DNA of 64,000 nt from Candidatus Latescibacterota bacterium (GCA_965205485.1 OZ242180.1:4192001-4256000), one strand, 5' to 3'. Counted from the stretch's first letter, positions 26,506 to 31,109 are shown. Made by a program: numbers and translations. Notes: generated by a model from the sequence alone, not told the origin.

Positions 26506-27105
26506 CTATTCACCGGTCGAACGCGGCAGGAATTCAGCCGCGCCCGCATGGCAGGTTGCGCAGGTGACCGGCGTCCCGTCCGATGTGACCAGCGATCCCT
26601 CGTAGTGGTCCATCATATACTTCGCCATCTGCTTATGCCTTGTGGGCTGTTCCGGCGCGAGGCGTCCGTCCTCCCGCCTGACGTGACAAAACTCGCAGTT
26701 TACCCCAAGCGCCGACTCAATCGCCTTCATCTTCCGGTAAATCTCCCTCCGGGGCATACGCTCGGACAGATTGGAGGGTTTGGCGTTGGTGAGGTCCCGC
26801 GGAATAAAACGGGCGTTGCCGCGGTGGCAGGACATGCAGTCCAGCGCCTTTCCGTCCGGTGTTCTCAGGCCGTCCACAAAATGAACCTTCATGTGGACGG
26901 CTGTCTGCTTAAACAACGAAGGCGCCTTGAAATCAGGTTTTCCATCCGGTCCGCGTACCGTGTGACAATGAGTACACCGTACCCCTAGTGACGCGGCAAT
27001 TCGTTTCATATTCTCTTCGCTCGTGTCCATCACGTGGTCCCGGTCGGCGTGCGCGCCTGCCGTCGCGACGCCCATTACGAGCAAAATCAGCAACAGTTTT
27101 GTCAT
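26506..27105 (-). CDS. Periplasmic tetraheme c-type cytochrome (reaction-centre cytochrome/PufC-like motifs)
   Basis: Signal peptide; CTHCH, CMSCH, CEFCH and CATCH in two repeated MxxIxxxLGVxCxxCH...CxxCHxG units. Confidence 0.88.
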   Translation of the reverse strand: MTKLLLILLVMGVATAGAHADRDHVMDTSEENMKRIAASLGVRCTHCHTVRGPDGKPDFKAPSLFKQTAVHMKVHFVDGLRTPDGKALDCMSCHRGNARFIPRDLTNAKPSNLSERMPRREIYRKMKAIESALGVNCEFCHVRREDGRLAPEQPTRHKQMAKYMMDHYEGSLVTSDGTPVTCATCHAGAAEFLPRSTGE

Positions 27106-28646: not shown

Positions 28647-28724
28647 TGGGGTGAGTGAGGGGACTTGAACCCCCGACCTCCTGGGCCACAACCAGGCGCT
28701 CTAACCATCTGAGCTACACCCACC
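28647..28724 (-). tRNA. tRNA-His (GTG)
   Basis: GGTGGGTGTAGCTCAG...CCTGGTTGTGGCCCAGG...GTTCAAGTC...CACCCCA; G-1 and CCA encoded. Confidence 0.96.
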
Positions 28725-28740: not shown

Positions 28741-28814
<74 letters not shown>

Positions 28815-28887: not shown

Positions 28888-29056
28888 GCAAAAACGGCGC
28901 AACCCATGGTTATGTAAAGAGCTGTAAATTTGAGCTCTATGTAGACACGTGAACGTAAATCCGTCTTGCTATCCGGACGCATGTAAGGTATATTTCAACC
29001 CGGAAAACCGGCACGGCCCCGGTGAGTTCATAACTTACGTATCGAGGAAACCCCGA

Positions 29057-30022
29057 ATGCGGACGTTCACTGCACTCTTGCTGTTCCTTCTGGCGGGATC
29101 AATTGCGACGCCTGCCGCCTATGCCCAGGGCGGTGTCAGCTGACGGCGCCCCGTGCTTCCGGGCGGAAGCCTGATGAAGAACAGTCTGGCTGTACAGGAT
29201 CAGTTGAAGTTCAGCGTACATTACGATTACGAATTCCTGTCCGACCCCCACTACGGGTCTCGCGCCATACCGAACGTCAATCGCGAGCGAACGGATAATG
29301 CCACAACCACCGTGTTCGCCGCCCTCGGCGTTACCGGGCACATCGGTGTTGCGCTCGCCGTACCCTTCCGGTCAGTTACCAACGAAAAGGTACTGTTGCG
29401 CGGACAGAACCCCAATCAGTATGAGGGCGGGAAGTATGTCAGGCATGCTTCCGGTCTCGGCGATATCGTGGTTATGTTGAATTACGCCGTACCCTTCGCG
29501 GCGGGCTTTCCCGGGATGCATTTCGGCATTGGTTTGAAGCTGGCAAACGGATCCGTCGATGCCAAAGACCATTACGGTGAGCGTTTTGCCGACAACCTGC
29601 AGATCGGGTCGGGAAGTGTGGACCCCATACTCGCGCTCAATATACTCCATCGCTTTGAAAGCCTGACGGTTTCTGCAAGCGTGTTTACGCGCATCACCTC
29701 AAGACAGAACATCTACGGCTACAAATACGGAAACGAACTGCACGCAAGCCTTTCCCTGGAGTACGAGAGCGAAGGCTGGCTGTACGGCGGAGTGAGCCTG
29801 AAAAACCTGATCACCTCGAGGGACCGTTATCAGTTCGGCCAGATAACCAGAGAACGCGGAGGTAAGTGGATGTATCTTTCGCCCGAATTGGGGTTCAACG
29901 TACTGGACAATCTGAGCGTTGAATTTCACCTTCCCGTTGTCGTATTCCAGAACGTGAACGAGAGCCAGCTGACGTCGGACTATCTGGTCGAGCTGAGCAC
30001 GTCATATGTATTCTCGCTCTAG
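29057..30022 (+). CDS. Outer-membrane beta-barrel ('transporter'/MetA-pathway-like) with in-frame UGA at codon 29; putative selenoprotein
   Basis: GAGGA RBS and ATG 29057, signal peptide MRTFTALLLFLLAGSIATPAAYA|QGGVS, then TGA(29141) and RRP continuing in frame into the 29153-30022 ORF. Motifs SGLGD, LQIGSGSVD and YKYGNE; C-terminus SYVFSL. Confidence 0.75.
29144..29170 (+). promoter_or_regulatory. Putative bacterial SECIS element
   Basis: GCTTCC-GGGC-GGAAGC hairpin starting 11 nt after the UGA, with a G-first apical loop. Confidence 0.62.
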
Positions 30023-30032
30023 GCGATCCGGC

Positions 30033-31109
30033 ATGCACCGAATTGGAAAGAAAAGCGGCCGGTTCATTTTTTTTGTCCTGTGGGCAACCCTTTTTGCGGC
30101 GGGCTGCTCGCTCTATCTTGACGATGAAGAGCCTGAGCAGTTCTACGAGATCGAAGATTTCGAAATCCTCGAACTCGGTGTGAATATCTCCGATATGGTC
30201 GTGGATCCGAACCAGCCATATCTTTATCTGGCCGATTACGGAAACAACCGGATACTCCGTATCCACCTTGGCAGACAGATGGCAGTAGACGGGAGCCTTC
30301 AGGTTGGTTCCCACCCCGTCGACCTCGACATCACGCCGGACCAGGGCCGTCTGGTGGTGGGTTTGAACGGCGAATCGAACCTCAAGGTCATCGACCTGAA
30401 TTCATTCGCCATTGTCAAGACGGTTCCTTATTCGCTGAATGACATTTCCCACATCGTCTGCGGAACCGACTCGATCGTATATGTTTCCTCTCTGGATGAA
30501 CCGCTGCTTATCGCCGTATCGATTGTGGATAAACTCGAAACGAGCGGGAATGTGCGCTCCGGCGCACTTCAGATGAACCACGGAAACCGAAAACTGTTTG
30601 TTGCCGCCAGGAACAACGTGCTGAAATACGACGCTTCAGGACAGTTTCCCTCTACCGAGACCACCTCCACCCGATTCAGTTTCTCAGCCAGGATCAACGA
30701 TTTCGTCATTGGCCCCCTCAACGAGCATCTATATCTGGGTCTGGAGGATCCGGAGGACCGCAGCCACGTTAAGGACCTCTGGTCGTTCAGCGCCGACGAC
30801 CTGACCCTGACGGGGAAATACGAAATCAAGTCGGCCGCACTGGGGCTCGCGCTGAGCCGCGACGGCCGCCGTTTGTTCGTTGCACCTACCGACGCCGATG
30901 AAGCAGGCGTCTTTATAGTTGAATTCGATACGCAGACCAAACTGGAGAAGAACTACTTCCTTGCGGCAGGAAACCTCAGAGAACGAGGCATCGCCATCGA
31001 CAACAACGATGAGTATCTGTATCTGGCGGTGTACACGCCTGGAGATGACGATACCTTCGAACCCTACAATATCGATTCCTACGACCTGCAGCGAATCAGG
31101 ATAGATTGA
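30033..31109 (+). CDS. YncE/YVTN-like beta-propeller lipoprotein
   Basis: Lipobox AAGC; repeats such as VGSHPVDLDITPDQGRLVV, LALSRDGRRLFV and IAIDNNDEYLYL. Confidence 0.82.
   Translation: MHRIGKKSGRFIFFVLWATLFAAGCSLYLDDEEPEQFYEIEDFEILELGVNISDMVVDPNQPYLYLADYGNNRILRIHLGRQMAVDGSLQVGSHPVDLDITPDQGRLVVGLNGESNLKVIDLNSFAIVKTVPYSLNDISHIVCGTDSIVYVSSLDEPLLIAVSIVDKLETSGNVRSGALQMNHGNRKLFVAARNNVLKYDASGQFPSTETTSTRFSFSARINDFVIGPLNEHLYLGLEDPEDRSHVKDLWSFSADDLTLTGKYEIKSAALGLALSRDGRRLFVAPTDADEAGVFIVEFDTQTKLEKNYFLAAGNLRERGIAIDNNDEYLYLAVYTPGDDDTFEPYNIDSYDLQRIRID

Follow-up and report, generated by a model that had tools for sequence, protein, structure and literature searches.

Two outer-membrane entries stand in the table of prokaryotic selenoproteins of a 2026 review, the GSU2204/MtrB-PioB barrel (NF041027) and the FCYXU TonB-dependent receptor (NF049945), and that table has no PF13557/COG4313 entry (PMC13188914). 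The gene described here lies at positions 29,057 to 30,022 of a 64,000-nucleotide stretch of DNA from Candidatus Latescibacterota bacterium (GCA_965205485.1 OZ242180.1:4192001-4256000; this whole stretch is referred to below as the window) and very probably belongs to an uncatalogued selenoprotein family of outer-membrane channels. Like the GSU2204-family and FCYXU selenoproteins its product is predicted to be an outer-membrane beta-barrel, but the barrel families are unrelated, and the putative selenocysteine (Sec, U) of the window protein sits at the extreme N-terminus of the mature chain. Insertion of Sec is itself canonical. A first-pass annotation of the window, made from the sequence, had called such a protein "unusual" for a selenoprotein, a description that needs softening because two other outer-membrane families are already catalogued (PMC13188914).

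Among solved channels, the COG4313 protein Pput2725 of Pseudomonas putida (Protein Data Bank 4RL8) is a 12-stranded barrel whose first ~14 residues enter the lumen from the periplasm and lie folded there, and its pore is constricted by Asp7, Tyr21 and Arg51; the word cysteine does not occur in that paper (PMC4493636). As far as the lists themselves go, neither the new families of the GOS (Global Ocean Sampling) survey nor the deep-Sep list mentions an outer-membrane barrel of the PF13557/COG4313 kind. The deep-Sep table requires Cys homologues for its new families, and surveys with that requirement would tend to miss a family with almost no Cys forms. In the literature searched (selenoprotein combined with outer membrane, beta-barrel or clade names) the family is undescribed, while supplements of the surveys could list it; the Geobacter ExtI porin paper deals with a porin that adjoins a selenoprotein, not with a Sec-containing porin.

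Reading frame and conservation of the UGA codon

As described in the first-pass annotation, the list of open reading frames (ORFs) shows two pieces on the + strand in one frame, 28949..29143 and 29153..30022. With TGA read as U, translation from the ATG at 29057 to the stop at 30022 gives 321 residues, and the sole in-frame TGA is codon 29 (29141-29143). The joined product begins MRTFTALLLFLLAGSIATPAAYA, followed by QGGVS-U-RRPVLPGGSLMKNS..., so that the predicted length, the position of the UGA and the mature N-terminus QGGVS-U-RRPVLPGG are all borne out by translation. The upstream piece does supply what had been claimed for it, namely a ribosome binding site (GAGGAA, 7 nucleotides before ATG 29057), the ATG and a signal peptide ending at an AxA-Q junction. 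The layout of this signal peptide (basic-hydrophobic-AxA) was assigned by eye rather than by a predictor; among relatives the AxA-Q or a similar junction is kept, and the hydrophobic part is variable. The barrel's only signal peptide comes from this upstream piece, and the mature window protein contains no Cys. The features of the gene are as follows.

29045..29050 (+): Shine-Dalgarno-like GAGGAA, 7 nucleotides 5' of the ATG, read off the sequence
29057..29125 (+): ATG and signal peptide MRTFTALLLFLLAGSIATPAAYA, from translation; an A-x-A motif for cleavage precedes Gln24
29126..29167 (+): QGGVS-U-RRPVLPGG, the N-terminus of the mature chain, better conserved than any other part and proposed to plug the lumen
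29141..29143 (+): in-frame TGA, codon 29 and mature residue 6, read as selenocysteine on the basis of conservation
29144..29154 (+): 11-nucleotide spacer between UGA and hairpin, codons Arg-Arg-Pro-Va, ungapped and of constant length in 90 distinct sequences
29155..29170 (+): SECIS-like (selenocysteine insertion sequence-like) hairpin, 6-base-pair stem GCUUCC/GGAAGC and GGGC tetraloop, supported by covariation
29171..30022 (+): beta-barrel body and TAG stop, from PF13557, an AlphaFold2 model and Foldseek

Comparison with relatives shows 29057-30022 to be a single gene in which translation passes a conserved UGA; it also shows selection on the RNA hairpin, and the genome has Sec machinery. Each of the 34 matches found in the phylum, distributed over 18 of 168 genomes, carries exactly one in-frame TGA, a 30%-identical relative from another family included; in all 30 loci retrieved from the phylum search the TGA comes after the signal peptide and before RRP. 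Also among the 34 is another copy of the gene in the same genome (L044; G000:C1:4798820-4799755, - strand), 53% identical, which has its own TGA and hairpin and reads AQPGVS-U-RRPVLPGGRML. Scans of metagenome and genome collections added 152 loci, 127 of which have a stop followed by R[RI]PxLP, and this stop, always at the same codon, is TGA in 127/127. The remaining 25 are made up of six loci cut by a contig end (L089, L093, L096, L117, L118 and L120), two that match from residue 123 (L112 and L187), seven distant Sec forms considered in the next section, and ten distant relatives with no stop at the site. In L112 and L187 the sequence upstream of residue 123 is unrelated, and these may be truncated or rearranged copies.

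The residues flanking the TGA are held constant by varied codons. Among the 90 distinct sequences, Arg at +1 is kept in every one (AGG 19, AGA 18, CGA 16, CGG 14, CGC 14, CGT 9), Arg at +2 in 88, Pro at +3 in all 90 by way of four codons, and Ser at -1 in 88, with AGY as well as TCN codons. That the amino acids beside the TGA are kept while the bases vary synonymously points to selection on a protein translated through the stop. Elsewhere in the genome TGA is an ordinary stop, as it terminates 1034 of the 1830 ORFs of at least 400 codons. Independent assemblies concur in having the TGA, and contigs from four public runs of four studies, sponge metagenomes among them, cover the site with no difference at 29141-29143 among the matches listed.

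Titles of the carrier records name Latescibacterota (some labelled Gemmatimonadota), KSB1, Calditrichaceae, Fidelibacterota, Marinimicrobia/Neomarinimicrobiota and the "FCB group". The sea and sponges commonly harbour several of these lineages (Marinimicrobia, Fidelibacterota, Latescibacterota and KSB1), and the occurrence of the family there implies that selenoproteome counts for such lineages are too low.

Existing annotation of the homologues would suit another reading, in which the locus yields two products or is a dead gene, with a 28-codon leader peptide ending at the TGA and a barrel starting at GTG 29153 or ATG 29174: in 64 of 72 database homologues the called start lies beyond the TGA, which typically leaves 282 residues, and one NCBI homologue is named as a 282-residue "transporter". 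A barrel begun at the later start would, however, lack a signal peptide; the 10 codons from the TGA to the annotated Met are the best conserved and vary synonymously; and a TGA fixed in 127/127 loci across phyla is not what a nonsense mutation would give, all of which makes this reading extremely improbable. The family peptides RPVLPGGSL... and RPLLPGGSLLEYNDSQ... lie between the UGA and the first downstream Met, and RRPxLPGG is conserved 5' of the annotated starts among the 15 of the 72 homologues that were aligned.

Hairpin, selenocysteine machinery and distant Cys/Sec forms

The SECIS of E. coli fdhF combines an 11-nucleotide spacing, a bulged U in the upper stem and a GGUC loop. The predicted hairpin GCTTCC-GGGC-GGAAGC is present at 29155-29170 and, like elements of the fdhF type, lies in coding sequence, 11 nucleotides after the UGA, with a G at loop position 2. 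It differs in having no bulged U, a stem of only 6 base pairs and the loop GGGC. The proposed match to the fdhF type therefore stands for the spacing and the loop G, and falls short in the absent bulge and in a GGUC loop found in only 10 of 90 family members. A counterpart is encoded in the same genome: the TGA of its selD gene is followed after 11 nucleotides by CAGTCC-GGTC-GGACTG, so that spacing, stem length and loop type are as in the barrel hairpin, and the GGUC loop is common to selD and those 10 family members.

Statistics on the hairpin come from an ungapped alignment of 90 distinct 54-nucleotide stretches, set against 500 shuffles. The 6-base-pair stem is paired in 93.7% of cells compared with 85.2% in the shuffles (0/500 as high), only 23-69% of cells are paired when the stem partners are slid by 1-3 columns, and the covariation score is 0.352 against 0.171 in the shuffles (0/500 as high), with the caution that the 90 sequences are related by descent and covariation counts overstate the number of independent events. 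Pair 24-33 joins the third base of a Leu CTN codon to the third base of a Gly GGN codon, both fourfold degenerate, and is never unpaired (C-G 50, U-A 28, U-G 6, A-U 4, G-C 2). The outer loop bases also covary (G..C 42, A..U 37), loop position 2 is G in 90/90, and the loop types are AGGU (37), GGGC (32), GGUC (10) and others (11). In L035, the 30%-identical relative, the hairpin is kept despite a differing peptide. The claim of a conserved TGA with its hairpin thus holds at the DNA level, in 127/127 loci and with a covarying stem.

The machinery that the first-pass annotation proposed to look for is complete in the genome. The sel cluster consists of selA (3225402-3226502), selB (3226583-3228463) and tRNA-Sec (3228602-3228699), and selD (L014; G000:C1:2394761-2395684, - strand) is itself a selenoprotein gene with the sequence ..ARTCG-U-AAKVSPVG around its TGA. 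SelA is found in 17 of 18 carrier genomes of the phylum, a co-occurrence that is consistent with Sec decoding and not discriminating, given that 131 of 168 genomes of the phylum have SelA. It was also found in four of five carriers from other phyla, and the fifth, a Planctomycetota-labelled assembly, has a selD with a TGA.

Seven distant relatives (23-30% identity) carry TGA directly after the signal peptide; all of their stops at this place are TGA, and each has a hairpin about 11 nucleotides after the last TGA. Their N-termini read:

...GVK-U-ASPNLPVGG (L119)
...AQ-U-AA-U-SNPNLPG (L121)
...GQ-C-PA-U-SNPNLPG (L122)
...AQ-U-PG-U-ANPLL (L124, L125, L193 and L197)

Between C-PA-U and U-AA-U, Cys is exchanged for Sec within a motif resembling CxxC. 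A library of cluster representatives gave 449 matches at E<=0.001, only 6 of them at 1e-30 or better, and 25 of 150 listed matches, chosen for a match start at or before query residue 30, were aligned. Directly after the AxA-Q junction, 19 of the 21 more distant full-length relatives in this alignment have CC, CxC or CxxxC, with Ser (P0083) or Glu (P0125) in the other two; two of the 25 carry "W". The expectation that barrels of this class have Cys-rich N-terminal tails is thereby confirmed as a Cys pair after the signal peptide. Anchoring the sequences by eye at the conserved Pro would place the Sec of the main clade at Pro-3, together with the second U of UxxU; the leading U or C of xxU proteins would lie at Pro-6, as would the leading C of CC proteins.

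A number of observations weigh against decoding as Sec. Besides the shared descent of the hairpins and the missing bulged U, the bare pattern (TGA, 11 nucleotides, a 6-base-pair stem and an N-G-[GT]-N loop) occurs at 169 sites in the genome as against 118-322 sites after other triplets; being no rarer after TGA than after other triplets, it proves nothing alone, and it is the conservation of the TGA together with the covariation of the stem that exceeds chance. A search of Rfam returned no relevant match, only a chance match to a long non-coding RNA at E 1.7. In the main clade there is no Cys form at the Sec column, and most selenoprotein families have one; in the MAFFT alignment the distant Cys pairs lie 2-3 residues from that column. 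Database proteins P0016, P0017 and P0083 have Ser at the site and P0125 has Glu, forms known at the protein level only, which argue that the Sec residue may be dispensable in some lineages. Finally, SelA was not found in two carriers, G044, an 80% complete genome of the phylum, and G172.

Alternatively, a near-cognate or suppressor tRNA might insert an ordinary amino acid at the UGA (Trp, Cys, Gly or Arg), the hairpin serving merely to stimulate read-through. Such a reading draws on the shortness of the hairpin, on the frequency of such hairpins in the genome, and on "W" at the site in database proteins: eight of the 72 database homologues cross the site, six with "W" and two with Ser, and Trp-bearing full-length versions are P0033, P0034, P0037, P0039, P0041, P0058, P0079 and P0154. 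The "W" proteins are, however, 96-99.6% identical to TGA-bearing loci (P0037/L094, P0033/L062, P0039/L068), and their "W" would most simply come from a gene caller that used a TGA=Trp code on short contigs. Ordinary read-through is further at odds with the identity in geometry between this hairpin and that of selD, with the Sec machinery of the carriers, with the use of TGA as an ordinary stop in the long ORFs, and with a Cys/TGA exchange in the CxxU/UxxU motif that is typical of Sec and not of Trp. It appears improbable, and we infer that the residue at the UGA is Sec. Decoding would then proceed by SelA, SelB, tRNA-Sec and SelD, directed by the coding-sequence hairpin 11 nucleotides downstream. 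Gene callers cut the gene to a 282-residue "transporter" with no signal peptide or else read the UGA as Trp, and either annotation makes the family invisible to surveys that use called proteins or Cys homologues.

Two other sites in the genome, both outside the window, G000:C1:5003318 (+) and G000:C1:4030556 (+), have a TGA plus hairpin in an open frame and may be selenoprotein candidates. The frame at the former reads ..YIYTTFP-TGA-KIPVSV..KRAPDFVLQDIDGNPV and resembles the start of a redoxin.

Barrel fold and N-terminal segment

The part of the protein after the TGA matches Pfam PF13557 with 26.8 bits (cut-off 22); several relatives match this profile too. No NCBIfam family was matched at E<=0.1, hence neither NF041027 nor NF049945. 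An AlphaFold2 model of the mature protein, built from an alignment of 30 diverse members, has a mean pLDDT (predicted local distance difference test) of 83.8 and a pTM (predicted template modelling score) of 0.81. Its best Foldseek match (E 1e-13, TM 0.67, 12-14% identity) is the amyloid-secretion barrel FapF (5o65), a protein with a coiled coil as well as a helical plug; genes of a Fap operon were not seen in the neighbourhood. The COG4313 channel Pput2725 (4rl8) is matched with TM 0.68/0.76 at ~10% identity, and the DSSP assignment of the model does not resolve cleanly into a number of strands.

The likeness to Pput2725 extends to the PF13557 match, the superposing barrel, the signal peptide and, ahead of the first strand, a conserved N-terminal segment of short length; that of Pput2725 fills the lumen (PMC4493636). 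The window protein differs in the Sec carried by this segment and in its pairing with a lipoprotein propeller and a redoxin. Residues S5, U6, R7, P9, L11, P12 and G14 are invariant in the 30 diverse members; the hairpin accounts for part of the conservation of LPGGS, but not for that of S-U-RRP. After cleavage of the signal peptide Sec would be mature residue 6, within the invariant QGGVS-U-RRPVLPGG. The wording "N-terminal tail or plug" used in the first-pass annotation is apt, since the first ~14 residues are luminal in the solved member (PMC4493636). By homology, the segment would fold into the lumen from the periplasmic side and narrow the pore, placing Sec6 in the lumen near the constriction.

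A barrel lipoprotein with Sec as the lipidated +1 residue was considered and rejected, since the cleavage site is AxA-Q and the residue at -3 is Gly or Gln, not hydrophobic (judged by eye).

Neighbouring genes and possible roles of the selenol

Neighbours were identified by Pfam scans of nine loci and then by profile searches over all loci, which hold 114 distinct barrel genes. A lipoprotein "propeller" gene lies directly 3' on the same strand in 86 of the 104 distinct barrel genes with at least 600 nucleotides of flank. Its product has a lipobox Cys, which is its only invariant Cys, followed by an acidic stretch, and gives weak Lactonase/SGL matches. Directly 5' of 38 of the 102 distinct barrel genes with at least 900 nucleotides of flank is a TlpA-like redoxin, with WATWCxxC, an N-terminal hydrophobic anchor and matches to AhpC-TSA, Redoxin and Thioredoxin_8. 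Where both flanks are available (96 genes), both partners are present in 21, the propeller only in 57, the redoxin only in 17 and neither in 1. At the window locus the neighbours are:

28647-28723 and 28741-28814 (-): tRNA-His(GTG) and tRNA-Arg(TCT), directly 5' of the barrel gene
30006..31109 (+): downstream lipoprotein beta-propeller gene, starting at ATG 30006 or ATG 30033, with the lipobox ..AAG-C before an acidic stretch and with weak Pfam Lactonase/SGL matches

In sister genomes a paralogue type (L189) is arranged as NHL-repeat protein, redoxin, barrel and methyltransferase. In L119 (2977-4299, +) the Sec-containing barrel continues in frame into a C-terminal thioredoxin-fold domain with CHTC. 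Both termini of an even-stranded barrel face the periplasm, so this fusion would place the CxxC domain on the side of the Sec-bearing tail. The upstream redoxin resembles TlpA/ResA-type oxidoreductases in its WATWCxxC motif, its redoxin-family matches and its N-terminal anchor. Known substrates of TlpA and ResA belong to cytochrome maturation or are Cu-site proteins, not outer-membrane barrels, and no description of a TlpA/ResA-type redoxin paired with a Sec-bearing channel was found in the literature searched. Scans of loci of the UxxU clade showed no recurring partner. At one of them, in a Planctomycetota-labelled assembly, a MerR-family regulator (L193:4831-5307, +) lies directly 5' of the U-PG-U barrel; none was seen at L124 or L197.

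The gene neighbourhood favours a redox role for Sec, and a redox-cycled group on the lumen plug is the leading idea, with metal binding as the main alternative. The selenol would act as a reactive, redox-cycled group at or near the constriction, the dedicated periplasmic TlpA-like CxxC redoxin would keep it reduced, and the barrel would work together with the adjacently encoded lipoprotein beta-propeller. Taken as a whole, this account (a Sec-decoded channel, a luminal Sec, a redox role and the two partners) is likely, in our estimate, to be the best explanation of the locus. Four observations temper it. The window copy has its propeller, with the tRNA genes upstream instead of a redoxin; the L119 fusion is known from a single metagenome contig; residues 1-20 of the model have a pLDDT of ~50; and for that reason the luminal position of Sec rests on homology at ~10% identity.

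Were Sec chiefly a ligand for a soft metal (Cu, Hg, Cd or similar) on the plug, the redoxin would do nothing beyond keeping it reduced for binding. The vicinal or spaced Cys pairs of the 19 distant relatives, and UxxU or CxxU in others, would suit such a site, as would the MerR-family regulator upstream of the L193 barrel, and a part in resistance to metals or metalloids is ascribed to many selenoproteins of the transporter type (PMC13188914). On the other hand, the regulator was seen at only one of the four UxxU loci scanned, the main-clade loci scanned with Pfam have no recurrent neighbouring gene for a metal pump, chaperone or reductase, and a lone selenol with no second ligand nearby makes a weak metal site. 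Judged from gene content and sequence, metal binding is the less likely role, at perhaps one chance in a few.

The redox role itself can be carried further, into a tentative proposal that we regard as rather doubtful in its specifics: a selenol at the narrowest point of the pore might be a covalent, redox-reset "filter", in which cargo (a chalcogen species, an oxidised lipid or a soft metal) reacts with Sec6, the thioredoxin-like protein regenerates it and the propeller acts as substrate receptor. If true, the outer-membrane channel would react chemically with the cargo that it passes, and the scarcity of Cys forms would signify that no chemistry other than that of selenium is adequate. The family lends itself to tests of selenium chemistry in the cell envelope: its outer-membrane channel would carry Sec six residues into the mature chain, hardly any Cys variants exist, and a dedicated redoxin is encoded nearby.

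Two further observations concern the surroundings of the barrel genes. At 26506-27105 (-) the window encodes a small secreted multihaem c-type cytochrome with several CxxCH motifs and matches to cytochrome c7 and MtrC/MtrF-like domains; it lies 2 kb upstream on the opposite strand, and no link between it and the barrel was seen in other loci. In several phyla (L142, L158, L164, L181 and L183), FG-GAP/UnbV_ASPIC repeat proteins with type IX secretion or dockerin tails are encoded within a few kb of the barrel-propeller pair.

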